64,000 bases of DNA from Candidatus Binatia bacterium (GTDB lineage: Bacteria > Desulfobacterota > Binatia > DP-6), in assembly GCA_036009625.1 (NCBI GenBank), contig DASYLJ010000166.1, forward strand, positions 1,703-65,702. Reading direction: 5' to 3'. Positions 43,163 through 62,123 of the stretch are shown piece after piece (position 1 is the first letter of the stretch; every line of letters begins with the position of its first letter). Made by a program: the position numbers and the translations under genes. Below the pieces are notes generated by a model that did no database searches, was not told where the DNA came from, and worked only from the letters and a program-made list of their open reading frames with translations.

Positions 43163-43217
43163 GTGCCGAGGAGGGGATTCGAACCCCTACGCCCTTTCGG
43201 ACTGCGGATTTTGAGTC
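43163..43217 (-). repeat. att core copy: orphan 3' half of tRNA-Leu(CAA)
   Basis: gtgccgaggaggggattcgaacccctacgccctttcggactgcggattttgagtc is identical to 62039-62093 except for one T-loop base (43178 t versus 62054 a). It lacks the tRNA 5' half: the sequence diverges immediately after gagtc. Confidence 0.9.
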
Positions 43218-43340: not shown

Positions 43341-43435
43341 TAAACCCTTTAGCGACAATGGGTTGACGATACGTATGCCGCGAAATGTCAGTAAATCGAT
43401 TGTGCGGGTTAATCCGCTCTGCCATATCGAGGTGC

Positions 43436-46014: not shown

Positions 46015-46440
46015 CTACGGGACTTCGAACAGGACATGCGAGGGGAACGCCCCTGGGACGAAGGGCAGGCCGCACACCGCATCACCCCCGACGAATACGG
46101 GTCCAGGCCATCGCCGGGGGAATGCCGTCATGCCGGCCGGGAGGACGCACCGCCCGCCATGGGCGAATCCACATCCGGTGGACCACTCGCCATCACGGGC
46201 GCGACCGCTGGCGCCTCCTTCCAGCGTTCCGTCCAACTGGCACTCGCCCCTTATGCGCCCCCGGACGACGCCGCCGGTACATGTCTCCGGCTTGCACCGA
46301 AAATGCCCCTTGAACTTCCCGTACCGGAATCGAACGCGAAACGTCGCCACCCCACCAGCAAAGATGCCCGGGCGGCGCACGGCCTCCGCCGTCCCTGCGG
46401 AGAGGAGCACCAGAGCAAGCAAAGCCAGCGCGGTCCGCAT
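46015..46440 (-). CDS. hypothetical secreted protein
   Basis: Start at the ATG at 46438-46440 gives signal peptide MRTALALLALVLLSAGTAEA. The mature part has 6 Cys (FRCKPETCTGG...GECQLDG...TGCGF...GRCVL...AVCGL). Confidence 0.55.
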   Translation of the reverse strand: MRTALALLALVLLSAGTAEAVRRPGIFAGGVATFRVRFRYGKFKGHFRCKPETCTGGVVRGRIRGECQLDGTLEGGASGRARDGEWSTGCGFAHGGRCVLPAGMTAFPRRWPGPVFVGGDAVCGLPFVPGAFPSHVLFEVP

Positions 46441-46473
46441 CGAGCGCACGCTATCAATGTCGTTCGCCACTGC

Positions 46474-46668: not shown

Positions 46669-46979
46669 CGAGCGACCCGGCGAGGAGGAGTGCAGGAATG
46701 CACCTCCTCGGCTTTAACCATCGCGGCATCGACCGCGAGGCCGACGATATCGAGGATGGCGGGTAGGACCGACGTCGGGAGGACGATGGTGGTTGGTGTA
46801 ACGCCTTGGGGCGTCGTGAAGGTCACGGTGAGGTTGGGGCCGCCTGATGCGGGGTCCCAGGTGAGGTCGGCTCGTGCGCCCGTGCTGTACGTGACGGTCG
46901 CGGAATAGGAACTGATGTCGAGGAGCATACTCGTGCCTTCAGTGGATGGTTTCGGCGTCGCCGTCATCGCACCACTCAC
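46665..46979 (-). CDS. small hypothetical protein
   Basis: 104-aa ORF. The GTG at 46977-46979 overlaps the primase-helicase stop (GTGA); an alternative ATG is at 46967. Confidence 0.45.
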   Translation of the reverse strand: MSGAMTATPKPSTEGTSMLLDISSYSATVTYSTGARADLTWDPASGGPNLTVTFTTPQGVTPTTIVLPTSVLPAILDIVGLAVDAAMVKAEEVHSCTPPRRVAR

Positions 46980-48820
46980 AGAGCGGGAACGACGGGTCGC
47001 GGCGGTTGAAATTGCAGTCTGGACAGAGGGGGCCGTTCGGAGGTCCGTCCGGTCCCGTGAGACTGATGTCCAAGATACGTCTCGGGATGCGACTCACGTC
47101 TCACCCCTAAGGGGTGTGAGACGTGTGAGACGCTCAATCCAACCGTCTCATGCGTCTCATGAGACGCATATGAGACGCGAGACGCATTGTGGGGGAGTGA
47201 CCACACCATGGCTTTGGGCGGTCCGGTGTGGAGCGCGCCGAGTTCCTTGGCCGCGCGGTTTACGGTCGCACGGGAGCCGCCAATCGCGGCTTGGACCTGG
47301 CTCGTGGTGCGCCCTTCTGGATGGGTGCGGAGGAGGTCACGGAACCTGCCCGCGTAGCCTACGGGCTCCCGGTCAACGGGCAGGCCATCGACGAGAACGG
47401 CCGACGAGATTTCCTCACCGCGACTATTCGCCCCAAGCTCTTGCGTGAAGAGCTTCAGACCGATGGCAGGGAACCCCTCCGCGTTCTTCTGTTTGGTGCA
47501 AGTGATGGTGACGTTGCGGTCGGCCTTCGTCACCTTGAACATGGTGTCAGCCGCGCCCGCCAGCGCGGTCGAGCCGCGAAGTTCACCGCTCTTCCCCGCG
47601 TGGTGGACGATAAGAACTGAGGCCCCGTATTGCTTCCGCAGGGTGTCCGCGGCGGCGACCGCCACGCCCATATCCGTTGCGCCGTTCTCCTCTCCTCCGA
47701 CCATCGAGCGCGCCAACGTATCCACGACGATGAGTTGCGGCGGTACCGGGAGGTCGGCAACTGCATCCACGATGCCTGACACGTCCCCCGTGTCGAGGAG
47801 ATTAACGGCGTCCCGCACGAACGCGACGTTTGCCTTCGCGATGCCGTGCCTCCGCTTCCACGCGTTCACGCGGAGCTTGATACCGCCCATGCCCTCGCCC
47901 GCGATGTAGACCACCGGCCCTTGCGCGACTGCGTGACCGTGCCAGGGAATCCCCGACCCGATGCAGAGCGCCATATCGAGCGCGACGAACGATTTCCCGA
48001 CGCCCGGCGCACCGAAGCACACCCCAAAGCTATCCCGCGCGAGGATGTTACCGACCAACGGCTCCGGCTCGGGTGTCGACTCCATGCCGTCATCCCAGAG
48101 CAGGCGATACTTGCACGGCTTGCTGACCAGGGCGCGTAGCTCGGCATCTGTGCAGAGACAGTTCGCCGCATCGCCGGCCTTTGGCGCATCTGGCCACACG
48201 ACAATGCGCGACCGACCACCCAGTGCCGTGAGCCTGTCGGCAATCCTACCCATATGCTTGCGGCCGGGTTCATCGTTGTCAGGCCACAGCGCCACGTCGA
48301 AGCCCAACAGCACCCGCAGGGAGTCGTCATTGGGAATCGATGCCGCGCCCGTTACCGTTCCCACCGCGAGGACGCCCCGTGCGGTTAAGGCGTCGCAGGC
48401 GGGCTCGCCCTCCGTGACAACCACCGTTGCCCCAGGTCGTGCGGTGGCGAGCGCTTCCGCGTGGTAGAGCGGCAGAGCGGTCGTGACCGTGCCGGTAGGC
48501 CAGTAGACTTTCTTGTGGATATTGGGGTTGGCGTAGTCGAGCCGCGTGTGCAGGACGGTGCCCACGGGCCATAGCCGCTCGCGAATAGGGTTATCGAGCG
48601 CGTCGGGGGACGCTAAGTCCTTCCAATCGCCGCCCCATGCCTTAAGAATGGCGGGGTATCGACACCCCGCTCGACAGAAGAGCGTAATGCCCCCATTGTT
48701 ACCTGCATCGATTTTGAGGGATGGCGTCGTGTCGTCATGGGCAGGACACAGGACCACGTACCCGTCCCCTTCCGGCTTGGCGCCTTGGAATGTTGCGGCG
48801 ATTTGTGCTACAGTCTTCAT
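46976..48820 (-). CDS. bifunctional primase (zinc-finger + Toprim) / RepA-DnaB-like helicase (AAA_25-type)
   Basis: MKTVAQIAATFQGAKPEGDGYVVLCPAHDDTTPSLKI...FCRAGC (zinc finger). VVVTEGEPACDAL...ALWPDNDEPGRKH (Toprim E...DxD). FGAPGVGKSFVALDMAL (Walker A). LIVVDTLAR (Walker B-like). SVLIVHHAGK. Confidence 0.85.
   Translation of the reverse strand: MKTVAQIAATFQGAKPEGDGYVVLCPAHDDTTPSLKIDAGNNGGITLFCRAGCRYPAILKAWGGDWKDLASPDALDNPIRERLWPVGTVLHTRLDYANPNIHKKVYWPTGTVTTALPLYHAEALATARPGATVVVTEGEPACDALTARGVLAVGTVTGAASIPNDDSLRVLLGFDVALWPDNDEPGRKHMGRIADRLTALGGRSRIVVWPDAPKAGDAANCLCTDAELRALVSKPCKYRLLWDDGMESTPEPEPLVGNILARDSFGVCFGAPGVGKSFVALDMALCIGSGIPWHGHAVAQGPVVYIAGEGMGGIKLRVNAWKRRHGIAKANVAFVRDAVNLLDTGDVSGIVDAVADLPVPPQLIVVDTLARSMVGGEENGATDMGVAVAAADTLRKQYGASVLIVHHAGKSGELRGSTALAGAADTMFKVTKADRNVTITCTKQKNAEGFPAIGLKLFTQELGANSRGEEISSAVLVDGLPVDREPVGYAGRFRDLLRTHPEGRTTSQVQAAIGGSRATVNRAAKELGALHTGPPKAMVWSLPHNASRVSYASHETHETVGLSVSHVSHPLGVRRESHPETYLGHQSHGTGRTSERPPLSRLQFQPPRPVVPAL
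47078..47185. repeat. iteron cluster: at least 9 copies of (T)GAGACG(C)/CGTCTC(A) in both orientations, candidate replication origin
   Basis: cgtctc at 47078 and 47097. tgagacg at 47117 and 47126. cgtctca at 47144 and 47153 (the 8-mer gcgtctca begins at 47152). tgagacgc at 47160 and 47171. gagacgc at 47179. The cluster includes the perfect 16-bp palindrome gcgtctcatgagacgc (47152-47167). It lies within the 3' tail of the primase-helicase ORF. Confidence 0.6.
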
Positions 48821-48939
48821 TGTAAGTATCTCACTTGCCCGACTTCGTCCTCGGGCCTCTCTCATCCGCTGACTACCTCGTGGCGCCCTCCAGCCCGCGG
48901 GGTAGTTGAGTTTTGAGCGTTATGGGTTGATGTGTGGGG

Positions 48940-49353: not shown

Positions 49354-49541
49354 CGCTCCTCGTTGGGGTTTGGGGTCAGGGTTTCCGCCACGAGACGGGC
49401 CACGGCTTCTCGAATCAGGACACTCGGCGGCTGCCCCCGCCGCATCGATGCGGCCTGGAGTAGCGCGAGGTCTTGAGGCAGGAGGCCAAAGGACGTCGTC
49501 ACAAGGCGGGGCTTATTGCTGTAGCGTGCGTGAGTGTTCAT
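49344..49541 (-). CDS. ribbon-helix-helix (CopG/Arc-like) DNA-binding protein, candidate element regulator
   Basis: 65 aa. RLVTTSFGLLPQDLALLQAASMRRGQPPSVLIREAVARLV fits the beta-strand, helix, helix RHH pattern. It is the first gene of the leftward operon. Confidence 0.6.
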   Translation of the reverse strand: MNTHARYSNKPRLVTTSFGLLPQDLALLQAASMRRGQPPSVLIREAVARLVAETLTPNPNEERCQ

Positions 49542-49563
49542 TGCTTGTTAACTTAATCATGGG

Positions 49564-49642
49564 CGGATTCGCGGGTGACAGTAAAGGCCCATGAATCGGC
49601 CCGCCCGTGCCGGGCGCAGTTGACTGTCACCCCCCGAATCCG
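49564..49642. promoter_or_regulatory. long imperfect inverted repeat in the divergent control region
   Basis: cggattcgcgggtgacagt (49564-49582) pairs with actgtcaccccccgaatccg (49623-49642). The perfect half-blocks are cggattcg and gggtgacagt, separated by a 40-nt spacer containing a small gcccg/cgggc hairpin. It lies between the RHH gene (minus strand) and the 49749 gene (plus strand). Confidence 0.5.
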
Positions 49643-49748
49643 GAACCATGATGTTTCGCGGATGACGTTGGCGCGGAAGGGGTATCGGTGGGAGCATGCG
49701 GACGCCTGCGGTTCGCAGCGCGACTCCGTGTCCTGCTAACAGGGCGCC

Positions 49749-50381
49749 ATGTCATGGCATGAACGGTGGCAGGACTACCGCGACCGTTACCGCGAACGGG
49801 TGACGGCGCGGCGCACTCTTGGTGCGACTGAACGCTACTACCGCCAACAGATACGGGAGGGCGAAACGGCGAAGAGAGAGGCCATTGCCGAGTATGAAGC
49901 CAAGCGCGCGTCTCTGGCGGGGCCAGAACACCACGACGCACGGAGCCACACATATGTCGCGGAACTCGCCGACTGTCGTTGGCGGGACGACGACATCGCA
50001 GCTTCACGCACTTCGATACTCGAAGCCCGCGCCCGGCATTGGGAGGTGCCGCTTCCGCTCGGAGCGCCTCACTACAGGAACCCATCCATGGACGGAATGG
50101 GTATCGGGCGGATTCTTACAGAGGACGGCGTTGCCGAACTGAGGCGGCGGATTCGTACCGAACAGAACGCGCGCTACTGGGAGCCCATACGCAATGCGAC
50201 GCCCCTGGTAGTCGGCCTTTTGGGATTCGTCGTCGCCATCGCATCACAGTGCAAGCCGCCGCCACAGGTCATCATTCCGAGCACCATCACCGTAGCCTTG
50301 GCGCCATCCACTCTGCCCATCACCACGACGTCATCGACGACCACCACGACCACAACCAGCACCCTCACGCCGCCCGACTAG
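49749..50381 (+). CDS. hypothetical protein with one TM helix and Thr-rich C-terminal tail
   Basis: 210 aa. The N-terminal half is charged and helical. The TM segment is ATPLVVGLLGFVVAIASQC. The tail is ITVALAPSTLPITTTSSTTTTTTTSTLTPPD. Confidence 0.6.
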   Translation: MSWHERWQDYRDRYRERVTARRTLGATERYYRQQIREGETAKREAIAEYEAKRASLAGPEHHDARSHTYVAELADCRWRDDDIAASRTSILEARARHWEVPLPLGAPHYRNPSMDGMGIGRILTEDGVAELRRRIRTEQNARYWEPIRNATPLVVGLLGFVVAIASQCKPPPQVIIPSTITVALAPSTLPITTTSSTTTTTTTSTLTPPD

Positions 50382-50397
50382 CGCACTCCACCTGAAG

Positions 50398-50646
50398 GTG
50401 CAGCCGACATCTTCACCCCTCGATGCCTCGATGCTACGAGGGCGCATGCCGTTGCGCGTGACTGCCATGCCGGGCCAGAACGACCCGACCCCGTGCAAGG
50501 TCTGCCGCGACGTCAACGAAACGTCCGTCGTCCTCTTCGGCTTTGTGTGGTGCTACCGCCGACCCTGCGGACACAACGCGCACATCAATGGCGGCGGCGA
50601 CCCACGCGCGGCACTGCGCATCACGCCCTGTACCTGTATTGAGTAG
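50398..50646 (+). CDS. possible small Cys/His-rich (zinc-ribbon-like) protein
   Basis: 82-aa ORF with CKVC...(20 residues)...CYRRPCGHNAH...CTC. The start is uncertain and there is no obvious SD. Confidence 0.3.
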   Translation: MQPTSSPLDASMLRGRMPLRVTAMPGQNDPTPCKVCRDVNETSVVLFGFVWCYRRPCGHNAHINGGGDPRAALRITPCTCIE

Positions 50647-50777
50647 GCGCATGCTCCTCCCCACCCAGCTCGCCACTCTGATACTCGTCGTCGTGTGCGT
50701 CGTCGCGTACGTGTGAACCGACGTGACCACGCGAAGGACGGACCGCCGACAATGACGTTGCCACCCGTGGAGGGCTC

Positions 50778-51068
50778 ATGGACGAATTACAGTGGCTTCA
50801 GCGGTGGTACGCGGCCCAGTGCAACGGCGATTGGGAGCATCAGCACGGCGTCAGGATAGACACTCTCGACAATCCGGGGTGGTCCGTCGCAGTCCAGCTT
50901 GAGGACACGGCGATTGCGGACCTATCCTTTGAACGCGTCGCAATAGAGCGCGCCCCGAATGATTGGATGCACTGCTGGGTCGAGAATCAGACGTTTGAAG
51001 GCAGGTGCGGGCCGCAGAACTTGGGCGACATGCTGGGCGTGTTCCGGAGTTGGGTCGAGAGCAGATGA
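50778..51068 (+). CDS. Imm53 family immunity protein (polymorphic-toxin immunity family)
   Basis: MDELQWLQRWYAAQCNGDWEHQHGVRIDTLDNPGWSVAVQLEDT...ERAPNDWMHCWVENQTFEGRCGPQNLGDMLGVFRSWV matches the Imm53 consensus I remember nearly motif for motif (W..QCNGDWEH.yG.kIdTLDNPGW...dW..C.ve...F.G.g....L). A ggaggg SD lies 4 nt upstream of the ATG. Confidence 0.8.
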   Translation: MDELQWLQRWYAAQCNGDWEHQHGVRIDTLDNPGWSVAVQLEDTAIADLSFERVAIERAPNDWMHCWVENQTFEGRCGPQNLGDMLGVFRSWVESR

Positions 51069-51090
51069 GTCCTGCCCCGTTCCACCGGCC

Positions 51091-51381
51091 ATGACGCTGC
51101 CGCCCTGGGATGCCTGGCACGCCATCGTGTCTCACGCGCTCGATTGCTTGGAGTCGAGGCCCCTCACCGTGGACGTCGCAACGCGCGAAGCGGATGCGCG
51201 CTACTTCATTCTTACGCGCGAGGGGGCAGACCTCTTCCTGGTCCTACCTAACGCCTTTGCCGATGCGGATGCCTTCGCAGGCGGGAAGCACCACGCGTTG
51301 ACGCGTGCGCTCGCGTGGCTGGCGACGGCTGAGACGGGAGCGCGGGTCGTGCTGCACCTCGAGCCGCACCCAGCCGTCTAG
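51091..51381 (+). CDS. hypothetical protein (follows Imm53; possible second immunity-like protein)
   Basis: ATG at 51091 (MTLPPWDAWHAIVSHALDCLESRPLTVDVATREADARYFILTREGADLFLVL...). 96 aa. No family recognised. Confidence 0.5.
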   Translation: MTLPPWDAWHAIVSHALDCLESRPLTVDVATREADARYFILTREGADLFLVLPNAFADADAFAGGKHHALTRALAWLATAETGARVVLHLEPHPAV

Positions 51382-51571
51382 ATATTGCAGACTGTGGGTT
51401 TCGCGCGAAGATTAGGCCAAACGCCCGCCCTTGTAGCAGGTTCTCGGCGCCTGTCACTCGGCAGAGTCCATGAACAACCGCCCGGCCGAAGTTGACTCCC
51501 GCGCCGACCGCACGCTACCGTCCGCGCATCGAAGACATGGAGTCTTCGACTCCTAGCAAGGAGGTGCGGGG

Positions 51572-51760
51572 ATGTTCGTAGCAGTGGAAACCGCGCGGGG
51601 GCCGGTCGCACTGAACCGGTTCTTGATAACGCGGGTACGGAAGCGGGACGACGGCAACTCTCGCGTCTATATGCTTGACGGTCGCTTCGTGGACGTCTGG
51701 CACACATGGCGCGAACTACAGGCCATCCTTAACGGCAACGACGGAGGGTGTTGCCAGTAG
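51572..51760 (+). CDS. small hypothetical protein
   Basis: 62 aa. A strong SD (aaggaggtgcgggg) precedes the ATG. The sequence is MFVAVETARGPVALNRFLITRVRKRDDGNSRVYMLDGRFVDVWHTWRELQAIL. Confidence 0.6.
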   Translation: MFVAVETARGPVALNRFLITRVRKRDDGNSRVYMLDGRFVDVWHTWRELQAILNGNDGGCCQ

Positions 51761-52305
51761 TCATCGGTAACACCGAGCGGGGACGCGGCAGGACGCGAGC
51801 CTGTACACTGTCCGGTAACAGCGGGCACGCGGGTAATTGGGGGCCGTCCCCACGGTGTTCCATCTCTTGTAGTACGCGGGACGTGGGCGGCGTGTGTTCA
51901 TCCGGTGTTCAACGGCCGGTCGGCGGCTCTCCCCACTCACCATGCGCCGCACGCCTACGATGATTGCAGCAACGTTCAACTCGCGGCGGTCGACCGAGTC
52001 GCCTTGCACTTGCGACCCAACCCGTGCCGTAACCGCCCTACGTCGACCCCTCCCATAGAGCCGGAGCCCGTCTCGTTCACCGACTTGGGTGACGCATTCG
52101 CCTTGCCGGAAATTCCGGACCACTGGCCGTCGCTCACCCGCTTCCACCACGACGTGGGGGCAGGCGTCCGACCGACCGATAGCCACTCTAACACTTCTCG
52201 TGGACGCCAGACGTCGAGGGGCATGAAGCTCAGAAACTCCCCGCGCGGTGTCGCCTGACACGTCACCGACTCCTGCGACGGTCCTCGATGGTGTAGTGTC
52301 TGTTC

Positions 52306-52704
52306 ATGCGTCGTGTGTTCGCCGTGGCAGTGGTGTTGTGGGTCACGTCCGCGACAGCCGGAGTGCGGACGCTCACCAGTTCGACATGCGGCGCCCGCTG
52401 CACCTTCGCGCTCTGCGTCGCCGCGACGGGTTACTATGAGGAATGCGCCAATGCTTGTGAGGCGGACATCGTAGTCCGCCCCGACGGGCGCGTGGACGTC
52501 GGCAAGATAGCTGATGGCCTCGTGGTGCTGTCTCGCGGCAAGAAACGCACTCGCCTACGCTGTCACCTTTCAACCGCTCCCTGCACTATCTGCGAAACCG
52601 ACGCCGACTGTACGGATACCCGCAATCCCGCCGCGCGTGGTATCTGCGCAGGGCTCACCTGTAGTTACGTGTGTCCCTCCGGAGCGGTCATCGACTATCA
52701 GTAA
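52306..52704 (+). CDS. small secreted 12-Cys protein, paralog A
   Basis: Signal peptide MRRVFAVAVVLWVTSATAG. The mature part has 12 Cys and is alignable with 53043..53423 (CG..CTF.LCV...GY.E.C...C.A..VV...RG.KKT.L.C....PC..C...D...G.C....C...C). Confidence 0.7.
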   Translation: MRRVFAVAVVLWVTSATAGVRTLTSSTCGARCTFALCVAATGYYEECANACEADIVVRPDGRVDVGKIADGLVVLSRGKKRTRLRCHLSTAPCTICETDADCTDTRNPAARGICAGLTCSYVCPSGAVIDYQ

Positions 52705-52713
52705 GTGTCTGCC

Positions 52714-53052
52714 ATGCGACTCGGACCCATTCTCGTCTGCCTGCTCGCCACAACCGCTTGGGGCGCTACCCTCGTGTGCGTTGACGGACAGCCGACGGGC
52801 GCGCTGACGTTCCGTGGAACGCGAACCACTCCGACGGTATGCGACACGGTGCGGGATGGCGTCTGCACCCTGCACCTCGGCCCTACCTGTACGCGCGTTG
52901 ACCCGCCGGGATGCCCGTGGGACCCGATGGTTGTGCCGGTCGGTAAGACGCGCCGGGCTCCCTTCTATGCGCGCGTGCGGGTGCGATGTCTCGAATGCCG
53001 CGCGCCGAGCGATTGCGGTACCGGGGTGTGTCGGGCGGGGCGATGTCGCTAG
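52714..53052 (+). CDS. small secreted 10-Cys protein
   Basis: ATG at 52714 (the track uses the GTG at 52705). Signal peptide MRLGPILVCLLATTAWG. The C-terminus is CLECRAPSDCGTGVCRAGRCR. Confidence 0.65.
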   Translation: MRLGPILVCLLATTAWGATLVCVDGQPTGALTFRGTRTTPTVCDTVRDGVCTLHLGPTCTRVDPPGCPWDPMVVPVGKTRRAPFYARVRVRCLECRAPSDCGTGVCRAGRCR

Positions 53053-53423
53053 CCCGCCGTTCGCTCGTGGTCCTCGCCATGGTCGTCGCGACCACCCCCG
53101 CGATGGCCGGCATCCGTTCTGTCTTCGAACGCCATGCTCCGTGCGGCCACGTCTGCACGTTTACATTGTGCGTTGGAACGTCGGGATATTGGGAGGCATG
53201 CACGTCGCCCTGTGACGCGAGCATGGTTGTCACGGCGGCTGACACCACGATTGTCCGACGCGGCAGCAAAAAGACCAAGCTAACCTGTGGCCCAAACTTG
53301 TCGCCGTGCGACCTGTGTACCGCGTGCGAGGATGATGACCCCGCCACACAGGGAGTGTGCTTGGAACAGACGACATGCGTCCAACTCTGCACTGACACGG
53401 GCGCCTCGTTCATCGAGCCATAG
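53043..53423 (+). CDS. small secreted 12-Cys protein, paralog B
   Basis: ATG at 53043, overlapping the previous gene by 10 nt. Signal peptide MSLARRSLVVLAMVVATTPAMAG. The 12 Cys sit at positions matching paralog A. Confidence 0.7.
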   Translation: MSLARRSLVVLAMVVATTPAMAGIRSVFERHAPCGHVCTFTLCVGTSGYWEACTSPCDASMVVTAADTTIVRRGSKKTKLTCGPNLSPCDLCTACEDDDPATQGVCLEQTTCVQLCTDTGASFIEP

Positions 53424-53516
53424 CAAGCCATTCCGAGACTCCGCGCCTGTGGAACAGACCCAGGTTCACTAGCCTGCCAGATTGACGGCGCCATGGCGCT
53501 GGAATACGGGGACGCC

Positions 53517-53963
53517 ATGGGGCGATGGCTAGCAGTCCTGTTCCTCGCGCTCGCGGTACATCCAACGAATGCCGAACTGCCTCCGCTGCCTGCCGGGACG
53601 CGACTGCTCGTGACGCTGACGGAGGCAGATGGCGCGGTCTCCAACGTGAAGCTTCGTTCGCGCCGCTGCTACACACTACGTGGGCTGCGATTTTGTGCAG
53701 GGCGTAGCCGGCCCTGCACGCCACGCGGCTGCACCGTCCTGATGTACCCGAGACGATGGACTGTCGAGGTCATGGGGGCTGCTACTCCAATCATGCTCAT
53801 CGACCGGAATGGGGTTCGGTGTCATCTGGCTTTTGACCCCGGCCAACACGGCGATGTCCAGGTGGGAACCTTTGCGTGTTATGATTTGGACGGTGGCGGC
53901 ATCGTCAACCCCGACTACGAAGGCACGTTCGTTCTGACACGATTGGGTAGAGGTCCGCGCTAG
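53517..53963 (+). CDS. hypothetical secreted protein (6 Cys)
   Basis: The ATG at 53517 gives signal peptide MGRWLAVLFLALAVHPTNA (the track start is 53493). No family recognised. Confidence 0.6.
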   Translation: MGRWLAVLFLALAVHPTNAELPPLPAGTRLLVTLTEADGAVSNVKLRSRRCYTLRGLRFCAGRSRPCTPRGCTVLMYPRRWTVEVMGAATPIMLIDRNGVRCHLAFDPGQHGDVQVGTFACYDLDGGGIVNPDYEGTFVLTRLGRGPR

Positions 53964-53977
53964 TCACTCTCGGAAGT

Positions 53978-54598
53978 ATGTTGAACATGCAATTTCGGCG
54001 GCTTGCTGCTGGCCTCGCCCTCGCCCTCGCGCTTGGTATGGGTGTGGCGCTCGGTCAGGATAACACCACGACCACGACGTCATCGACGAGCACGACAACG
54101 TATACGTTGCCGCCCGAACAGGTGGCGTGTGGCACCCACTACCACTGCATGCTGAGGGCATGTCGCAAGGCGTGCGATACCAACGCATACTGCCGGGCAC
54201 GTTGCTTTGAACGTTGGGATGCATGCCTCCATGCCAATGGGTGTGACTTCGCGTTTCCGTTTTGCATCACCGGTGTCGGCTATGGCGAGTGTAACGTCAC
54301 GGTGCCTGGTGAAACCTACGGCTGTGCCGTTGTCCGTCTGGTGAACCGCACCGCCGACGTGTTGTCGAATGTCGCTATCAACGGTCAGGCCACCGGAGTG
54401 ACCGTGCCACCGCACAGTGCGATGCAGGTGCTGATACCGCCGTCACTCAGCGGGGTGACGGTCACCGCTGACTCCATGACATCGGTGGATGCGTCCGGTG
54501 GTCCATGTGCGTGGACGTTCACGCGCGCCAGGTGTTTGGACGAAGTGGAGAAGCAACGAGTCACATTTCGTCGCGGGAATTCCTCGTGCGCTCAGTGA
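53978..54598 (+). CDS. hypothetical secreted protein with Thr/Ser-rich linker and 14 Cys
   Basis: Signal peptide MLNMQFRRLAAGLALALALGMGVALG. Then QDNTTTTTSSTSTTTYTLPP, followed by a Cys-rich helical-looking block (CGTHYHCMLRACRKACDTNAYCRARCFERWDAC). Confidence 0.65.
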   Translation: MLNMQFRRLAAGLALALALGMGVALGQDNTTTTTSSTSTTTYTLPPEQVACGTHYHCMLRACRKACDTNAYCRARCFERWDACLHANGCDFAFPFCITGVGYGECNVTVPGETYGCAVVRLVNRTADVLSNVAINGQATGVTVPPHSAMQVLIPPSLSGVTVTADSMTSVDASGGPCAWTFTRARCLDEVEKQRVTFRRGNSSCAQ

Positions 54599-54821
54599 CG
54601 ACTACTGCGTCGGTCGCAGTTCGCATGACGCGTTTGTCGTGACGGCGGTCGCCGTCCCAACCGACACCACGGTGTCACAGCAAGCACGCGGCCAACCGCA
54701 GGTCCCGCCGTGGACGTCACGCACAAGAAGTCGCCCGCGCACTCAACGCCACGGTGACCACACACTACTCGGCCTGCGAGATTCCTTGCCGGCGCCGCAT
54801 GCCGCGTGGTGCCGCCAATCC

Positions 54822-55667
54822 ATGCTGACTCGCGCCCTTGCCGGCCTGGTCTTCCTCACGGTGGCGACCGCCCACGCAACGGACATCGTCGTCCCCGATG
54901 ACTACCCGACCATCCAAGCCGCCGTTGATGCCGCCGCATCCGCAGGCGACCGGGTACTCGTGCGACAGGGCGAGTATCCGGAGTCCGTGAAGGTCGAAGC
55001 CAAGACGCTCACCATCGAGGGACTCGACGGTACTCCAACCTTGCTGCCCGGCCCTAAGCGTCCCGGAGTGTTTCAGCGGAAGCGAGGAACGCCTTCCCGG
55101 CTGACCTTGCAAGGGGTCGCAATCACCGGCGGGAGCACCGCTATCGACTGCGACAACTGCTCCGTCTACCTGAGCGCTATCACAGACAGCCGCGACGGAA
55201 TTCGAATTCGCGGTGCGGGATACGGCGGAAACACGGTGCTCGTGGGCAATGCGCTAACGAACATTGCCACAGGATATGGCATCCACCTGCGGCGCCATCC
55301 GCTTGGGCAGAGCGTCGACATCGAGGAGAACGTCATCGTTGGATGCGGCAAGGATGGCATCCACGCGAGTGGAAAGAGCGTCCGCAACGTCGAATTCAAC
55401 AACGTGACGAATTGCCGGCGCAACGGCATCGTCCTGAAGACGGCTGCGTACACCGTTACCGACAATCGTGCCACGACCAATGGCGCGGCAGGCATCGTGA
55501 CGAAGCAGGAGACGGACCCGGCCTACTTCCTCTACAACTGGGCAACTGACAACGGCACTTACGGCCTCGACCTCAAATCAACGTATGACCCGTCTGCGTT
55601 CGACTTCCTGAACCCCGCGATGGGCAACGGCGTGGCGAATATTCGGACCTCAGTCGGAGTGCTGTAG
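54822..55667 (+). CDS. secreted right-handed parallel beta-helix repeat protein (NosD/pectate-lyase-fold-like)
   Basis: The ATG at 54822 gives signal peptide MLTRALAGLVFLTVATAHA. TDIVVPDDYPTIQAAVDAAASAGDRVLVRQGEYPESV is the typical N-terminus of beta-helix proteins. Repeated N..GI/G.GI units follow (GYGIHL, KDGIHASG, RNGIVL, AAGIVT). Confidence 0.7.
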   Translation: MLTRALAGLVFLTVATAHATDIVVPDDYPTIQAAVDAAASAGDRVLVRQGEYPESVKVEAKTLTIEGLDGTPTLLPGPKRPGVFQRKRGTPSRLTLQGVAITGGSTAIDCDNCSVYLSAITDSRDGIRIRGAGYGGNTVLVGNALTNIATGYGIHLRRHPLGQSVDIEENVIVGCGKDGIHASGKSVRNVEFNNVTNCRRNGIVLKTAAYTVTDNRATTNGAAGIVTKQETDPAYFLYNWATDNGTYGLDLKSTYDPSAFDFLNPAMGNGVANIRTSVGVL

Positions 55668-55669
55668 GA

Positions 55670-56557
55670 ATGACCATGCTCGTGCGACTCGTCATCACTG
55701 CTCTTGTGACTTTCCTCGCGGCGCAGTCTGCCCACGCGCTCGACATCACGACGTGCGGCACGGTCGTGCCTGAGCGGACCGTGGGCGTCCTCGTCGCTGA
55801 CCTTGAGTGTATCGGCTCTGGTCCGTCAATAACGGTGGAACGAGCCGCATCGCTGAACCTCGATGGCCACACACTTCGCGTTCTCAATCCTCCGCCTCCT
55901 CCCTTCGTGACCACGGCCGTGGGTGTCCAGTGCAGCGGTCCTGGTCCGTGCGTGATTCAGGGACCTGGGACGATAGAGGCCGACCATGTTGCGGTAAACC
56001 TCTTGGAGCGCGCCGCCCTACGCATGTCGGCCGGCGTAACTCTGCGGGCGCCTGTCGGTATCTACGCGTTGAGAGAGCGTCTCGCCGTTCGTCTGTCCGA
56101 CGTCGTCATCGAGTATGGTGCGTCGGCTATCTATGCGGCCGCAGGCGGCGACTCCCGCTATCGATATGCACCTCGGGTGCTCGTGGAGGATGTGCTGCTC
56201 ACGTTTGCGCCGGAACTTGGTTCGCGCAACTACACGACGCTCTCGGCCAAAACGCTGAAGGGCACGGGGCTAACGTTTGTGGGGCCCCGCGAGGAAACGG
56301 GGAATCGGGCGATAGAGGCCAAGGCCGTATCTCTAGTCAACCTGACGATGGTGGATGTGACGGCCTTGGGATGCGGCGTGACCGCTGAACGTGTGACGCT
56401 TCGGGATTCCGTGGTCACGGGGAACTACGAATTTCCGTCGCGGCCATGTGATATCGCGGCTATCCGGATGCCGCGTCTCATAGGCACAACGTGCGACCAC
56501 AGTGCCCGGCAAACTCCTCCGTTTCCGTTCGACTGGGATGTCTGCCTCAGCGACTAG
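55670..56557 (+). CDS. hypothetical secreted protein (8 Cys), possibly beta-helical
   Basis: The ATG at 55670 follows aggaa. Signal peptide MTMLVRLVITALVTFLAAQSAHA. The beta-rich periodicity looks repetitive. No family recognised. Confidence 0.6.
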   Translation: MTMLVRLVITALVTFLAAQSAHALDITTCGTVVPERTVGVLVADLECIGSGPSITVERAASLNLDGHTLRVLNPPPPPFVTTAVGVQCSGPGPCVIQGPGTIEADHVAVNLLERAALRMSAGVTLRAPVGIYALRERLAVRLSDVVIEYGASAIYAAAGGDSRYRYAPRVLVEDVLLTFAPELGSRNYTTLSAKTLKGTGLTFVGPREETGNRAIEAKAVSLVNLTMVDVTALGCGVTAERVTLRDSVVTGNYEFPSRPCDIAAIRMPRLIGTTCDHSARQTPPFPFDWDVCLSD

Positions 56558-56681
56558 AGTGCATGGCGCCTCCTGTGGCGAGGCACCCGCCCGTTGTGCG
56601 CGATGGCGGCCACACACCATCGGGGGGACGGCGCCCGCACTTCTAGGCCCCGAGTTGTCGGAAACGAGCGCCGCCCTGGGA

Positions 56682-56909
56682 TTACCCGTCGAGTTTCCTC
56701 AGTAGCTCTAGAACGAAGGGGCCAGCGTGGGCGGGGTCGCGCCAGACGTTGTCGCGCCGCAGGTAGAGCAAAAGCGACCGCACGACGTCGGCCAGGACGT
56801 CGTGTGATGGGACGTTCGGGCGACGTGGTGCCGGCGTTGGCGGGAAGTCGCGGACGGTCCGCTCGATGAATCCGGTATCCTTCGTGAGGAATTTGAGCTT
56901 ACTGAGCAT
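56682..56909 (-). CDS. small hypothetical protein
   Basis: 75-aa ORF that overlaps the stop of the upstream 394-aa gene by 11 nt. It is the last gene of the leftward packaging-side operon. Confidence 0.45.
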   Translation of the reverse strand: MLSKLKFLTKDTGFIERTVRDFPPTPAPRRPNVPSHDVLADVVRSLLLYLRRDNVWRDPAHAGPFVLELLRKLDG

Positions 56910-58083
56910 TGGTCATTCTCTTGATGACGTCATCGGCGACGAGACGGCGGTTAGCGTTGGTATCGGGTAGATTCCGTGCGGCGAGGCACTCCCGGAAGAG
57001 CGCGGGCACGTCGAAAGGTTCGGCGCACTGCACGACGTCACCAGCGGGTGGGTAGCTCACGAGGTCGGGACGCATCTTTGCGACCGCCGCATGGGCTTGG
57101 CGGGAATCGCCGTCACGGAACGTCAGGGCATTCTTGCAACGGTAGAGTAAGACCGCCTCAGCAAACGTCCGCGCCGACGCAACGGACGCGCCCTCGCTCG
57201 CAATGCGTTCAAGAGCGACTTGGCGCATGGCTGCAAAACGGTCCGTGGGCTCGCTGAGTCGGAGCTTCTGTGCCTTCGCGATGGCTTCGTACCTGTCGAA
57301 GTTCCGCCGTTCCCCAGCCGACACGTTGTCGCCGAGTGTGAGCGCGACATCCACGTCTGCACTCGCGTACAAGCCTGGCTTGAATGCGGAGGTGTCACCA
57401 GTGATGCCCGCGCTCGTGAACCCTCCCGATGCGTGCGACGCCTTTCGATACTCTGCATACGTGTTGGGCGTGCCTGAGGTGCGCGTCCCAAAGCGCTGCC
57501 ACGGGGCAGGGTCGGCATGCGGCACCGTCGGCGTGCGGGTGTATTCGAGATACCGTGCCCGCGCCGTCTCGGGGTCGCTGAACGCGTCGAAGGGCTCGCT
57601 CGATTGAATGCATGCGGGCCCGATGACTTCGGGGGCTTTCCGCCCCACGATGGGCGCGACGGCGCGCGGTTTCGCAGCGGCCAAGATGTCGTCGGCGCTC
57701 AAGCCTTGGACAAGGTCGGGGCTCTCGTTCGTCACCGCGACGACGGCCTTGTAGCGGTCGGTGGGGATGTCCTGGTCTAGCCCTAGCTCCTGAATCTTTG
57801 AGTCAACGGCGGCGAGGAACGTTTGATAGAAGTTGGTGTCTGGGGGCGTTGGCATTTCGGTCGGTGTTTCCAAAGTTGACGTTGGTTCGGGGTCGGGTTG
57901 CACGTGTGCGCCGGGCCAGCCCGACTTATCCATCGAGGCAAGCGAGCCAGGGGCGAGTGAGGGAATGTCCACGCCACCCGCCATGAGTTCATCCGGCGTC
58001 CACGCGGCGCTCTCTTCGGGGTCGGAGGGTTTCGGGTAGACGGGCGCGACCATCATTAACGGGAGCGGAGCAACGCGTTTCAT
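56899..58083 (-). CDS. hypothetical protein downstream of HNH-terminase (function unknown; not recognisably portal or capsid)
   Basis: The ATG at 58081-58083 overlaps the HNH stop (ATGA). 394 aa with a Pro/Asp/Glu-rich N-terminal third. No motif recognised. Confidence 0.6.
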   Translation of the reverse strand: MKRVAPLPLMMVAPVYPKPSDPEESAAWTPDELMAGGVDIPSLAPGSLASMDKSGWPGAHVQPDPEPTSTLETPTEMPTPPDTNFYQTFLAAVDSKIQELGLDQDIPTDRYKAVVAVTNESPDLVQGLSADDILAAAKPRAVAPIVGRKAPEVIGPACIQSSEPFDAFSDPETARARYLEYTRTPTVPHADPAPWQRFGTRTSGTPNTYAEYRKASHASGGFTSAGITGDTSAFKPGLYASADVDVALTLGDNVSAGERRNFDRYEAIAKAQKLRLSEPTDRFAAMRQVALERIASEGASVASARTFAEAVLLYRCKNALTFRDGDSRQAHAAVAKMRPDLVSYPPAGDVVQCAEPFDVPALFRECLAARNLPDTNANRRLVADDVIKRMTNAQ

Positions 58084-58494: not shown

Positions 58495-60144
58495 TCATGC
58501 GATGAGCCTTCCGGGTATCCCAAACTCTTCATCGTGCCGGCTCTGGAAGCGGTCGCGGATGAGTTGTTCGTCTTGGTGCGTGGAGATAATCGGCCCGTCA
58601 TCGGACAGGGAGAGCTTGAGCCGTGTTGCATCGCGGCCCAGGTTCCGTGCCTCGATGATGGCGCCGCAGGGTTGGGACGCGAGAAGCAACGCGCCACAGC
58701 AGGAATTCGCGATGTCGTCATGAAGCCCACGGCGCACCCCCACGGATTCACGGCCGGTCTTCGATAGACTCCGCTCCAGACTCCCGAGTTGCGCGAGCAG
58801 CTTGGGAAGGTTCGGAAGCAGCACGCGCCCGCTCGTGAAGAGCGGAAGGGCGTTGGCCATAATGTCGGCCTTCGAGCCCAACTTCGTGTCGTCCGCTGCG
58901 GTCCCCGTGACGACGTACTCAATCCCGAACTTGGCGAAGGTCTGCGGGGTGTGCGTGCCGCCCCACCGGTCGCCGTAGCAACGAGGTACGCCGTATTCCG
59001 TGAGCAACTGACAAAAGCGCTCTATGGTCTGCTCGGCATCGAAGGGCGGCAACACTTCCCGCACCACGTCGAGCACCACCGTCCCGTCGTCCTCCGCGTG
59101 CGCGATGGCAAGGCATGCGCTGTCACTTGTCCCCCCGCTGCCATCGAAGAATCCGTGGTACTGGACGCCGTATCGCGGGGGCAGTTCGTCTTGTCTGCTC
59201 TGGTCTACCGACGCTTCAAGTAGGTCGTGGGAGTAGAGCCGGGCGACGTCGCTTCGAAACTCGGCGTACCACTCCGCTCTCCCTGCGTGCGGGTCGAGGG
59301 CAATGGCCGCCTCGATGACGTCGTCGGGAATCGTGCCGTTCATGAGTTTCGACGGCGATTGCCATACGAGCTTGCTCCCTGGCTTCCCGAAGTGGTCACG
59401 GTAGGCTTCCCACAACGCGCCACTGCGACCGTAGGGAGAGGAGAGACAGAGGAGCATGCCCTTCGTTGTGGCGAGCGCAGGACGAATGGCCTTTATCAAC
59501 TCATGGTCTGGCTCTGCGGATTCGGAGCCACGCATCATTGCCAATTCGTCAAGACAGCACGCAATCAACGTGTGCCCTCTGATTTTGCGGAAGCTCGCGG
59601 TATGGACGGCGATACGGATGCCGTTGTCGAGCGTGACCGAGTTGGCCGTTTCGCGGATGACCTTGTCGGAGAGCAATGGCGAGAGGCGCAATAAGCCCTT
59701 CACGTAGTCGCAAATGACGGCGGCTTGGGACCGGTCGGGTGCGATGATGGCGCACACCCCACGCTCACCAGGACTCAGGACGGTCGAGTAGTCAACGAAG
59801 CATGCGAGGAACACGGCGAGGATTGCCGTTGCGTAGGACTTGCCCGCACGTCGGCCGCACACCAACCACGACTCTTTCGCTTGCTCGGTGGGTGGGTCGA
59901 CGCGGTTTGTGCAGGCGCGATAGGTCGCGAGCATGTCTTGCGTCATGGGCAACCCGAACAACGACGCGAAGTAGCTGCGCCACGCGGAGAAGTCGCCCCG
60001 CTTCACGGCCAAGCCCAAGAGCGCGTCATCGTCGAGCGCGTCGAGGATAGTGACCCCAGAAAAAATATTGGCGCGTGGGACCGTATGGCCCGCGAGGGAT
60101 GGGACTCCGGCGTCTAACTCCGTTGGCGGGGGGGTCTTACTCAC
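58495..60144 (-). CDS. terL: phage terminase large subunit
   Basis: Walker A is WLVCGRRAGKSY. Walker B-like is LIACCLDELA. The C-terminal nuclease region is YHGFFDGSGGTSDSACLAIAH...GLHDDIANS. The start is proposed at the GTG at 60142-60144, overlapping the TerS-like stop; the track ORF extends to 60249. Confidence 0.8.
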   Translation of the reverse strand: MSKTPPPTELDAGVPSLAGHTVPRANIFSGVTILDALDDDALLGLAVKRGDFSAWRSYFASLFGLPMTQDMLATYRACTNRVDPPTEQAKESWLVCGRRAGKSYATAILAVFLACFVDYSTVLSPGERGVCAIIAPDRSQAAVICDYVKGLLRLSPLLSDKVIRETANSVTLDNGIRIAVHTASFRKIRGHTLIACCLDELAMMRGSESAEPDHELIKAIRPALATTKGMLLCLSSPYGRSGALWEAYRDHFGKPGSKLVWQSPSKLMNGTIPDDVIEAAIALDPHAGRAEWYAEFRSDVARLYSHDLLEASVDQSRQDELPPRYGVQYHGFFDGSGGTSDSACLAIAHAEDDGTVVLDVVREVLPPFDAEQTIERFCQLLTEYGVPRCYGDRWGGTHTPQTFAKFGIEYVVTGTAADDTKLGSKADIMANALPLFTSGRVLLPNLPKLLAQLGSLERSLSKTGRESVGVRRGLHDDIANSCCGALLLASQPCGAIIEARNLGRDATRLKLSLSDDGPIISTHQDEQLIRDRFQSRHDEEFGIPGRLIA

Positions 60145-60535
60145 GGGCGGTCCTGACCTTGGCCGCCAAGTACGCCTCAAGCCCACCCCGCTCTTCCGCC
60201 ACGCGGTCGAGGCCCAACTGTCCGAGGAGTCTGGCCAGCCCATCCGCAATGGTCTGCCGGCTACGCACGATGGGCAGGATTTCCCGCTTCCGCTTATTGA
60301 CGATGGACGCCTGTCCGAGGAGCCAGGAATCCACTTGGTCGAGCAACCACCGTTGGCGGCACGCTAGCTCTACGAGGGTGCTACGCTGCGCCGATAGGTC
60401 ATCCCCCAGGTCGGCGACAAGCTCGGCTCGCCACAGGGCCAGGGCGTCAGCGGCGGGGCCTGTCAGGGGCAGTCCTGCGCGGCCCTTCAGGGCAGGGGAT
60501 AGACCGTGCTGGGTGCGCTCGCGATATCTCGACAC
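60137..60535 (-). CDS. putative terminase small subunit
   Basis: 132 aa with a GTG start at 60533-60535. It lies immediately upstream of and overlaps terL. The protein is helical and basic (P27-like pattern ...ALWRAELVADLGDDLSAQRSTLVELACRQRWLLD...). The assignment rests mainly on position. Confidence 0.5.
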   Translation of the reverse strand: MSRYRERTQHGLSPALKGRAGLPLTGPAADALALWRAELVADLGDDLSAQRSTLVELACRQRWLLDQVDSWLLGQASIVNKRKREILPIVRSRQTIADGLARLLGQLGLDRVAEERGGLEAYLAAKVRTARE

Positions 60536-60803: not shown

Positions 60804-61388
60804 ATGACTGACGAGAACTGGTTTTCACTGGCCAACTCGCTGATAGCGGCTGCGGCGGGTGTTGGCGGCGTGGCAGTTGGTGCGTTCATGACGGCATGGG
60901 AGCAGAGACGGGAGGCGAGGCGTGCTTTCGTGCGTCAGCAGCTGAGTGAGTTTTATTCGCCGATGCTCGCGCGTCGTGGGCAACTCATTGCTGCCCTCGT
61001 TGTGGAAGGTGCGGCGGGCGGCTCCGGCGGGGAGGGTGCGGGTGGACCGCTCGACCGGACGGCCATGGCGGCCCGCTGGCTCTACGAGAGCGCTCCGGCC
61101 CGATTCGACGCGGCCGTCTATCCACTTCTGGTGTCGCTGTTGGACGCGTTCATTGCAAATCTCTGGTTGGCCCAGTCGAGCACGCGCAAGCATCTCGAAG
61201 CGGTTGCTTTACAGGTCGCGACGATTCAGAGCGACCAGGCAAGAGGGGGTCCGAGACGAGGGGGGCGCGTACACTTGGACCATCTCTACGACTTTCTGGC
61301 GGATATCGATGAGCAGTTCGTGGTGCTTCAAACGGCTCTCAGGGATAGTGAATACGACGGGTGGCGGTGGCCATGGATAGCACGATAG
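60804..61388 (+). CDS. membrane-anchored hypothetical protein, tandem paralog 1
   Basis: N-terminal TM segment LANSLIAAAAGVGGVAVGAFMTAW. It shares FVRQQLSEFYSPMLA and NLWLAQSSTRKHLEAV blocks with the next gene. Confidence 0.6.
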   Translation: MTDENWFSLANSLIAAAAGVGGVAVGAFMTAWEQRREARRAFVRQQLSEFYSPMLARRGQLIAALVVEGAAGGSGGEGAGGPLDRTAMAARWLYESAPARFDAAVYPLLVSLLDAFIANLWLAQSSTRKHLEAVALQVATIQSDQARGGPRRGGRVHLDHLYDFLADIDEQFVVLQTALRDSEYDGWRWPWIAR

Positions 61389-62038
61389 GTGCCGCGCTCA
61401 TTGGCGCCGTAGTCGCCGTGATTGTAGCCCTGGTGGGCTTTGGTGGCGTGGCGCTTGGTTCGTGGGCGACGATTCGAGACTTGAAAGAGCAGAGGCGGTT
61501 GGAGTTCGTCCGCACGCAACTCAGCGAGTTGTATTCGCCCCTTCTCGCGTTCGGGCCCCAGCTTGGCGTCGCGGAGCAAATCTATCTTAGCATGCGCGAC
61601 CTCGGCCTTGCTCCGGCTGGCGTGGGTGGGACGACCGGCGAGGTGTACGCGGAGCGATACGTGGCCACGGTGCTTCCGCTCTATCAAGACATGCTGGCCG
61701 TCTTCAGGAAGGGTCTATGGCTTGCGGAGCCCAGTACGCGGGCGTGTTTCGCAAAGCTCGTGGGCCAAGTGAGCCTCTTAGAGCAGGCCCTGGCCGCCTA
61801 TGCCCCGCGCGTGGTGATTGAAGAGGTGTGCTCGGTCGCGCACAACGCTGTGCTGCGGGATGACATCGAATCTCACTTCGGTCGGCTGCAAGCGCTCCTG
61901 CGACCCGCGCCCCCGTCCATCATGCGCCGCATGCAACAAAGGGTGTGTTGCATGACAATCCGCTCAACACCCACACAAGGGGGCAAATCCGCGCAGGGTG
62001 GGGCAGGGAGCGACACGCGGAAACGCATGGGGGAGTAG
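61361..62038 (+). CDS. membrane-anchored hypothetical protein, tandem paralog 2
   Basis: N-terminal TM segment IGAALIGAVVAVIVALVGFGGVALGSW. It carries FVRTQLSELYSPLLA and GLWLAEPSTRACFAKLV. An alternative ATG is at 61373. The ORF reads through the 30-bp arm repeat and stops 1 nt before the tRNA 3' end. Confidence 0.55.
   Translation: MAVAMDSTIGAALIGAVVAVIVALVGFGGVALGSWATIRDLKEQRRLEFVRTQLSELYSPLLAFGPQLGVAEQIYLSMRDLGLAPAGVGGTTGEVYAERYVATVLPLYQDMLAVFRKGLWLAEPSTRACFAKLVGQVSLLEQALAAYAPRVVIEEVCSVAHNAVLRDDIESHFGRLQALLRPAPPSIMRRMQQRVCCMTIRSTPTQGGKSAQGGAGSDTRKRMGE
61948..61977 (+). repeat. 30-bp direct repeat, candidate integrase arm-type site (tRNA-proximal)
   Basis: ttgcatgacaatccgctcaacacccacaca matches 43311-43340 at 29/30 positions. 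It lies 61 nt inside the right att core. Confidence 0.6.
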
Positions 62039-62093
62039 GTGCCGAGGAGGGGAATCGAACCCCTACGCCCTTTCGGACTGCGGATTTTGAGTC
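62039..62093 (-). repeat. att core copy within the intact tRNA-Leu gene
   Basis: 54/55 identical to 43163-43217. It covers the tRNA from the last bases of the 5' strand of the anticodon stem through the anticodon loop to the discriminator base, plus one 3' base. Confidence 0.9.
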
Positions 62094-62123
62094 CGCCGCG
62101 TCTGCCAGTTCCGCCACCTCGGC
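62040..62123 (-). tRNA. tRNA-Leu (anticodon CAA), class II with long variable arm
   Basis: The reverse complement folds by eye. Acceptor GCCGAGG/CCUCGGC. D-arm GCGG...CGC. Anticodon stem GCGGA/UCCGC with loop CUCAAAA. Variable arm GUCC-GAAA-GGGC. T-arm AGGGG-UUCGAUU-CCCCU. Discriminator A. CCA is not fully encoded. Confidence 0.9.

Follow-up and report, generated by a model that had tools for sequence, protein, structure and literature searches.

Seven adjacent genes with signal-peptide-like N-termini

We analysed a 64,000-nucleotide (nt) stretch of contig DASYLJ010000166.1 (assembly GCA_036009625.1; hereafter the window), which belongs to a metagenome-assembled genome (MAG) of Candidatus Binatia, an uncultured soil bacterium with a G+C content (GC) of about 70%. 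The subject of this report is a run of seven co-oriented open reading frames (ORFs), P1 to P7, at 52306-56557, in an integrated phage-related element. All seven ORFs listed in an earlier note on this DNA, which had been made from the sequence alone, were present on the + strand with the starts described there (Table 1). Successive genes are separated by 9 nt, overlap by 10 nt, and are then separated by 93, 14, 223 and 2 nt. Recounting the cysteines of the mature proteins gave 12, 10, 12, 6, 14, 4 and 8 for P1 to P7, identical to the earlier counts and even in seven of seven cases; the signal peptide of P2 contains one more, its 11th. Across P1-P7, 5.2% of residues are Cys, compared with 1.8% in the remaining proteins of the element; the share reaches 10-11% in mature P1, P2 and P3 and is 5-11% across the five small proteins P1-P5. 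Many of these residues are spaced as CxxC, Cx3C or Cx4C. P2 is basic (isoelectric point (pI) 9.1), as is P4, and P1, P3 and P5 are neutral or acidic. A repeat search in 49400-57000 did not find cassette-like flanking repeats, and an Rfam scan was uninformative for the context of the block. The observation of seven adjacent genes with signal-peptide-like N-termini was confirmed.

Table 1. Features of the seven-gene run and of the element that carries it (positions in the window; aa, amino acids; signal peptides are predicted)
Feature	Position	Strand	Description
P1	52306-52704	+	132 aa; signal peptide and 12-Cys domain; founding member of the P1/P3 family
P2	52714-53052	+	112 aa; signal peptide and 10 Cys; probable gene
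P3	53043-53423	+	126 aa; P1 paralog
P4	53517-53963	+	148 aa; signal peptide and 6 Cys; basic, pI 9.3; probable gene
P5	53978-54598	+	206 aa; signal peptide, Thr-rich linker and 14-Cys domain
P6	54822-55667	+	281 aa; signal peptide and right-handed parallel beta-helix
P7	55670-56557	+	295 aa; signal peptide and probable divergent beta-helix, 8 Cys
attL	43163-43217		displaced copy of the 3' part of tRNA-Leu; GC falls here from ~0.70 to ~0.63
Tyrosine integrase	43385-44539	+	phrog_1, E 2.4e-47
Excisionase / transcriptional regulator-like	44525-44800	-	phrog_66, E 4e-8
Primase-helicase (AAA_25)	46976-48865	-	PF13481, E 4e-38; phrog_906, phrog_239
Imm53 immunity-family protein	50778-51068	+	PF15580, E 1.6e-36; in the separate block 49749-51760
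Distant large terminase (TerL)	58495-60249	-	phrog_2, E 4e-23; with the Joint Genome Institute (JGI) start, 58495-60012, 505 aa
tRNA-Leu(CAA)	62038-62123	-	ARAGORN; Rfam 58.2 bits; contains attR 62039-62093

The N-termini were judged by a von-Heijne-style rule of our own, which asks for a positive net charge in the n-region, a hydrophobic core spanning 8 residues or more, and small residues at -3 and -1 of an AXA-type site. This rule-based scan passed all seven proteins, in agreement with the Sec-type signal peptides claimed for them before. The likely cleavage sites from P1 to P7 are ATA/G, AWG/A, AMA/G, TNA/E, ALG/Q, AHA/T and AHA/L (the slash marks the predicted cut), and a lipobox ([LVI][ASTVI][GAS]C), read directly from the sequences, is absent from all seven N-termini. 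As a chance control, a stricter rule with a flexible start was applied to every ORF of 100 aa or longer in the six frames of the window, 222 in all; 27 passed, and the P1-P7 run supplied 7 of these 27. Given this background of 12%, an uninterrupted, co-oriented run of seven passing ORFs is far beyond chance. The signal peptide is also retained in nearly all homologs of P1/P3, P5 and P7, and the P7 family has a conserved AHA/LDITTCG junction at the N-terminus.

Two further N-termini of this kind were noted outside the run. The element has an eighth signal-peptide-like ORF at 46015-46470 (- strand; 151 aa, MANDIDSVRSMRTALALLALVLLSAGTAEA...), which has several Cys, lies in the replication module on the strand opposite to P1-P7 and was called by JGI. 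Just outside the island, a host gene at 38431-41475 (+ strand) encodes 1014 aa with the signal-peptide-like N-terminus MMSRFFAVPLALALSTCLVVPASA...

Three genes of the run are absent from standard gene calls

JGI gene calls for a contig of 100% identity list P1, P5, P6 and P7 and omit P2, P3 and P4. They leave 52705-53963 (1.27 kb) empty, yet this interval holds P3, which aligns with P1 at 34% identity (E = 6e-20) with 12 of 12 Cys aligned. Because of this clear paralogy P3 was accepted as a real gene, and the pipeline therefore skipped at least one real gene. A search with P3 of a database of 5.8 billion proteins returned no protein at E <= 0.01, not even P3 itself, so that P3 had never been called as a gene in that database. 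The interval was thus left empty by an error of gene calling, in DNA of high GC where antisense ORFs overlap.

P2 and P4 are probable genes. When codon usage was scored as log-odds trained on the confident genes of the element, the annotated frame was the best of six for both, with weak margins (0.014 log-odds per codon for P2 and 0.046 for P4), and the 545-nt spacer upstream of P1 scored negative in all frames.

P1 and P3 define a small family of 12-Cys proteins

An exhaustive profile search with P1/P3 against 1.84 billion protein representatives gave 14 matches. The family members are 98-281 aa long, nearly all with a signal peptide, and in a 15-sequence alignment 7 Cys columns are invariant and 4 nearly invariant. 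Two motifs recur, ADPCxExCTFxLC and CxSDADCDDGxPATxDxC...CxHxCP, and no Pfam family matches any member. The AlphaFold (AF2) model of P1 is mostly beta (predicted local distance difference test (pLDDT) 82.7, predicted template modelling score (pTM) 0.67), and Foldseek found no neighbour for it in the PDB (best E 1.2) or in BFVD (best E 0.25). P1 and P3 are of interest as a small new family of predicted secreted proteins with 12 Cys and a confident predicted structure, for which no structural neighbour is known. The closest relative of P1 (P0008, 48% identity) is encoded by a lone gene in chromosomal DNA of 70% GC, between genes for an aldehyde dehydrogenase and a biotin carboxylase.

A C-terminal motif had been proposed as common to the first three proteins. 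This stands for P1 and P3, which are homologous over their full length, but not for P2, which is not detectably related to either (E = 0.21). The last 20 residues of P2 (CLECRAPSDCGTGVCRAGRC) resemble the 22-residue repeat of the Myxococcales family Myxo_Cys_RPT (TIGR04201; 17.1 bits, E = 0.0045), and the P1/P3 family has a comparable C-x2-C...D-C-D-D-G...C segment. Unlike Myxo_Cys_RPT proteins, however, P2 falls below the curated cut-off of 25 bits and has a single copy rather than a repeat array, and P1 and P3 give no match to this model.

P5 has one homolog with all cysteines conserved

A homolog search with P5 returned two proteins at E <= 0.001, one of which is the product of P5 itself. 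The other, P0007, is 54% identical (BLASTP), conserves 14 of 14 Cys and is encoded in a different gene neighbourhood; the ratio of nonsynonymous to synonymous substitution rates (dN/dS) between the two is about 0.24. Contigs L001-L003, being identical, offered no polymorphism for a selection test. PDB sequence searches with P5, the P1 family, P6, the P7 family and the ORF o385 gave nothing meaningful.

The Thr-rich linker of P5 is also kept in P0007. Upstream, at 49749-50381 (+ strand), a 210-aa protein has a hydrophobic segment near its C-terminus and, after it, a Thr-rich tail, and the DNA of this tail (50317-50350) is 85% identical to that of the P5 linker (54066-54099).

P6 is a beta-helix protein and P7 probably another

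As had been proposed, P6 is a right-handed beta-helix protein. It matches Pfam PF13229 with 51.3 bits against a cut-off of 25.9 (E = 1.3e-13) and PF05048 (NosD) with 43.4 bits against a cut-off of 23.6 (E = 3.4e-11). For the NosD subfamily TIGR04247 it stays at 23.8 bits where 300 are required, and no nosZ-, nosF- or nosY-type family was found among the scanned proteins of the element, a set that leaves out the smallest ORFs. A tblastn search of 50,697 phage records with P6 gave no match, and plasmid records yielded none either. Across Pfam, PHROGs and NCBIfam, P6 is the only one of the seven proteins with real matches.

P7 is probably a beta-helix as well. The suggestion that the seventh protein may share this fold has no direct support from P7 itself, which matches no Pfam, PHROGs or NCBIfam family, but it is favoured by the P7 family and by the predicted structure. 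A homolog search with P7 returned five proteins at E <= 0.001, one being the product of P7 itself from the NCBI record of the MAG, and one of the other four matches PF13229 at 4.5e-6. One homolog is encoded next to two integrases; the contig of another is short and unrelated. The AF2 model of P7 (pLDDT 72.7, pTM 0.72) has many short strands, and its top 50 PDB matches in Foldseek are nearly all beta-helices, none of them significant (E >= 0.017, template modelling (TM) score <= 0.39); the list includes polygalacturonases, tailspikes (P22, HK620, CBA120), alginate lyases and RbmB. An hhalign comparison of the P7 family with P6 aligned only the signal peptides.

The run lies in an 18.9-kb element integrated at tRNA-Leu

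The island that holds P1-P7 extends from ~43.2 to ~62.1 kb (18.9 kb), and its GC falls to ~63%. It is bounded by a 55-bp direct repeat whose two copies, attL and attR, are 98% identical with a 39-bp exact core. The integrase, excisionase, primase-helicase and TerL genes, together with the attachment (att) repeats at tRNA-Leu, bear out the earlier placement of the seven genes in a phage-related integrated element. A + strand block at 49749-56557 separates the replication genes from the packaging genes, two sets that are both encoded on the - strand. TerL is 26% identical to the terL product of Synechococcus phage S-CBS4.

Capsid, portal, tail and lysis genes were not recognised in the island with Pfam and PHROGs. 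About 15 ORFs have no family assignment, and none exceeds 410 aa, so that a complete virion module is unlikely. As in phage satellites, an integrase and a replication/primase module are bounded by att sites. Among satellite core genes (terS and capsid morphogenesis genes of phage-inducible chromosomal islands (PICIs); capsid, portal and adaptor genes of capsid-forming PICIs (cfPICIs); psu, delta and sid of P4), Pfam and PHROGs recognised only TerL. We infer that the element is satellite-like or defective. Adjoining attR, two ORFs without family assignment, 60804-61388 (+ strand) and 61361-62038 (+ strand), are paralogs with ~32% identity (E = 1.6e-7).

Related TerL loci lack the seven-gene block

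To place the block relative to the backbone of the element, relatives of TerL were collected in an alignment-based scan; GTDB genomes yielded one and JGI metagenomes 97, with identities of 38-54%. The neighbourhoods of 80 of the 97 metagenome relatives (L014-L093) and of the genome relative were compared. No homolog of P1-P7, or of the other unassigned ORFs of the element, was carried by any of the 80 loci, and the genome relative likewise lacks the cargo. A related integrase was present at 7 and a related primase at 6 of them. The absence of P1-P7 from these loci indicates that the seven genes are accessory to the integrase-primase-TerL backbone, and the block behaves as cargo, as the earlier note had held. 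Whether the cassette travels with the integrase/terminase backbone had been put forward as a check; it is not conserved as a unit, and relatives of P1, P5 and P7 occur singly elsewhere. The whole block gave no match to phage DNA. IMG/VR scans with conserved peptide patterns for the P1 family, P5, P6 and P7 found no relatives; the single-protein scans used for P6 and P7 detect close relatives only.

The TerL family itself is found in soil and sediment metagenomes, the source of the 97 relatives, and IMG/VR yielded only 2. At one locus (L082 4677-12462, on a 903-kb contig) a minimal integrase-primase-TerL unit is followed by host genes, with no recognisable capsid or portal gene. In several other long contigs, too, TerL has a related integrase or primase nearby. 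The proteins encoded downstream of TerL in the relatives had no Pfam match, except at L035, where a 1060-aa tape-measure-like protein (8552-11734) directly follows TerL and has tape-measure (PF06791) and GH108 domains. Some members of the TerL family thus sit in fuller phage-like contexts. The family may represent undescribed TerL-bearing satellite-like elements, and this family of small integrative elements may have wider interest than the P1-P7 cargo.

Interpretation of the block as probable exported accessory cargo

The reading that we consider probable, with a clear measure of doubt, is that P1-P7 are accessory (moron-type) exported cargo of the ~18.9-kb phage-related element at tRNA-Leu, probably directed at the envelope or at glycans. 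P1-P7 would be exported via the Sec pathway and cleaved by signal peptidase I. Pairing of the Cys into disulfides would follow in the periplasm, in keeping with the even count in each of the seven proteins, and the site of action would be the periplasm, the cell surface or the surroundings of the carrier. Many right-handed beta-helix proteins are exported glycan-active enzymes. P6 and P7 would most likely bind or cut polysaccharide, and P1-P5 may be stable modules that bind or inhibit. The carrier would end up with an altered envelope or exopolysaccharide, a form of lysogenic conversion with possible consequences for phage adsorption or competition. Actual export and disulfide formation are what we infer from sequence features of P1-P7 and from how these are conserved; the glycan target and any benefit to the host are speculation. 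We found no evidence that the seven-gene block forms a new secretion or toxin system.

Several points weigh against this interpretation. The signal peptides are predictions by our own rule. P2 and P4 were skipped by the JGI calls, and they had no family match above cut-off and no relative in the fetched loci, no homolog search having been made with either. No match of P6 to a catalytic family was recognised in Pfam or NCBIfam, and no PDB sequence match was found. A promoter and terminator scan of the block was uninformative. Homologs of P1, P5 and P7 stand singly in other contexts, so that a joint function of the seven is not required.

A more far-reaching version would make the block one exported unit, in which glycan-active P6 and P7 act with disulfide-knotted partners, including a new-fold 12-Cys domain (P1/P3). 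It would remodel the Binatia surface against phage adsorption or neighbours and be spread by an undescribed minimal TerL-bearing satellite-like family common in soil metagenomes. This whole chain we regard as a long shot.

Alternative explanations

The alternative that survives best concerns the gene content: P2, P4 or both may not be real genes, which would leave a block of five or six. This is unlikely, and it is compatible with the exported-cargo interpretation. High-GC DNA gives many long spurious ORFs, the codon-usage margin of P2 is merely 0.014, and both ORFs share the lack of a JGI call, of a family match above cut-off and of relatives in the fetched loci. The same pipeline, however, likewise missed P3, which is certainly coding. 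For P2 and P4 alike, the annotated frame scores best of six, the n/h/c signal peptide is complete and the number of Cys is even, and if they were not genes, 1.2 kb of non-coding DNA would lie within a compact block.

A second explanation is a periplasmic poly-immunity or inhibitor array, in which exported orphan proteins would neutralise incoming toxins or enzymes (effectors of type VI secretion systems (T6SS) or contact-dependent inhibition (CDI), lysozymes, phage depolymerases) and so extend the cytoplasmic Imm53. Small disulfide-stabilised periplasmic proteins are typical inhibitors, as in Ivy, PliC/MliC and the Tsi proteins. The distance to the co-oriented Imm53 gene upstream is 1.2 kb, and the layout, with tandem, co-oriented and tightly spaced genes for unrelated small proteins near a recombinase and variable between relatives, is as described for polyimmunity loci (PMC3482391). 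P1-P7 nevertheless match no immunity family, Imm or otherwise, among the Pfam and NCBIfam models, and PADLOC gave no match for ten proteins (P1, P4-P7 and five encoded upstream). No immunity type is known that consists of ~270-aa beta-helix proteins, and no toxin lies near the lone chromosomal gene that encodes the closest relative of P1. An inhibitor array is attractive for its layout, yet we hold it to be improbable.

The earlier note had named, as one possible role, a secreted bacteriocin- or effector-like arsenal against competitors, with the upstream Imm53 and its neighbours as self-immunity in the same operon. Small size, Cys-richness and predicted export suit such a role, as do the basic character of P2 and P4 and the presence of an immunity-family gene within the element. 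The operon did not hold up, as a 545-nt non-coding gap (51761-52305) and two genes intervene between Imm53 and P1. For polymorphic toxin systems, Zhang et al. (2012; PMC3482391) list Imm53 alongside the toxin domains Ntox24 and Ntox10 and not alongside small proteins exported by Sec; neither domain is present here. No toxin family was found in P1-P7 or in their neighbours with Pfam or NCBIfam, and no defence family matched P1-P7 (Pfam, NCBIfam; PADLOC for P1 and P4-P7), which speaks against the proposed toxin-immunity pairing. In addition, P1, P3 and P5 are not basic, the homologs stand alone without immunity partners, and a diderm would need a further secretion step, for which Pfam, PHROGs and NCBIfam recognised no secretion family in the element. 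We give the arsenal little credence, slightly less than the inhibitor array, and the nearby Imm53 should not be taken for one half of a toxin-immunity pair.

The conserved Cys could instead bind a periplasmic metal (Cu, Zn or Cd), the block then being metal-handling or resistance cargo. Mobile elements often carry metal resistance, the CxxC, Cx3C and Cx4C spacings are numerous, and P6 matches the NosD family, which Pfam names copper-binding. Against this, P6 stays far below the cut-off of the true NosD subfamily, the even Cys counts in seven of seven proteins fit pairing, and Pfam, PHROGs and NCBIfam recognised no metal transporter, regulator or known metallochaperone in the element. A metal-handling role is very unlikely.

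Least probable of all is a virion-associated or helper-directed role, in which P6 and P7 would bind receptors in the manner of tailspikes or depolymerases and the small proteins would be parts of the particle: P6 matches phrog_7458 'tail spike' (E = 7.7e-6), tailspikes are among the top matches of the P7 model and TerL adjoins the block, but the phrog_7458 and tailspike matches span only the generic beta-helix, all seven proteins carry predicted cleavable signal peptides, the block is on the strand opposite to the packaging genes, no relative was found in the phage records or in the peptide-pattern scans of IMG/VR, the P1 model has no neighbour among viral structures (BFVD) and related TerL elements lack the block. 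With no virion family match beyond the generic beta-helix, and with proteins that look exported and disulfide-rich, the earlier view of P1-P7 as exported rather than structural proteins was supported.

If P1-P7 are exported as predicted, this block is among the earliest views of lysogenic-conversion-type cargo in Binatia, a soil lineage that is abundant but uncultured. The run also serves as a case in which standard gene calling missed three of seven genes.

Comparison with known systems

P6 meets the Pfam thresholds of the beta-helix class (PF13229, PF05048), which includes polysaccharide lyases and hydrolases, C5-epimerases and tailspikes, and for P7 both the family and the model suggest this fold as well. 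Unlike tailspikes, P6 and P7 have no N-terminal particle-binding domain. They are also short (~265 aa mature), and P7 has 8 Cys.

Polyimmunity loci (PMC3482391) and acquired interbacterial defence clusters share with the block a tandem, co-oriented layout by a recombinase, variable content and, here, a nearby Imm53. In contrast to polyimmunity loci, P1-P7 belong to no known immunity family, all are predicted to be exported and two have, or probably have, a beta-helix fold.

The element differs from the four SatelliteFinder families in having TerL together with no TerS, capsid-morphogenesis or capsid genes recognised by Pfam or PHROGs. In Staphylococcus aureus, the superantigens of pathogenicity islands (SaPIs) and the sak-chp-scn immune-evasion cluster of converting phages are secreted-protein cargo. 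The cargo of PICIs and SaPIs and the morons of prophages resemble P1-P7 in being Sec-exported (for P1-P7, as predicted), non-essential, placed between replication and packaging modules and absent from related elements. P1-P7 nevertheless share no sequence or fold relation with that cargo, comprise seven genes, five of them for proteins with 5-11% Cys, and are carried by an uncultured soil Binatia rather than by a pathogen as in the S. aureus satellites. Literature searches found no description of a comparable module. The earlier note had further stated that it knew of no described satellite cargo of this kind; this is not supported, as phage satellites carry toxin and virulence cargo, including PICI toxins, and secreted-protein cargo on satellites and prophages is well known (PMC10085698). 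P1-P7 are therefore a known kind of cargo, and what is new is a set of rare, uncharacterised families in an uncultured lineage.

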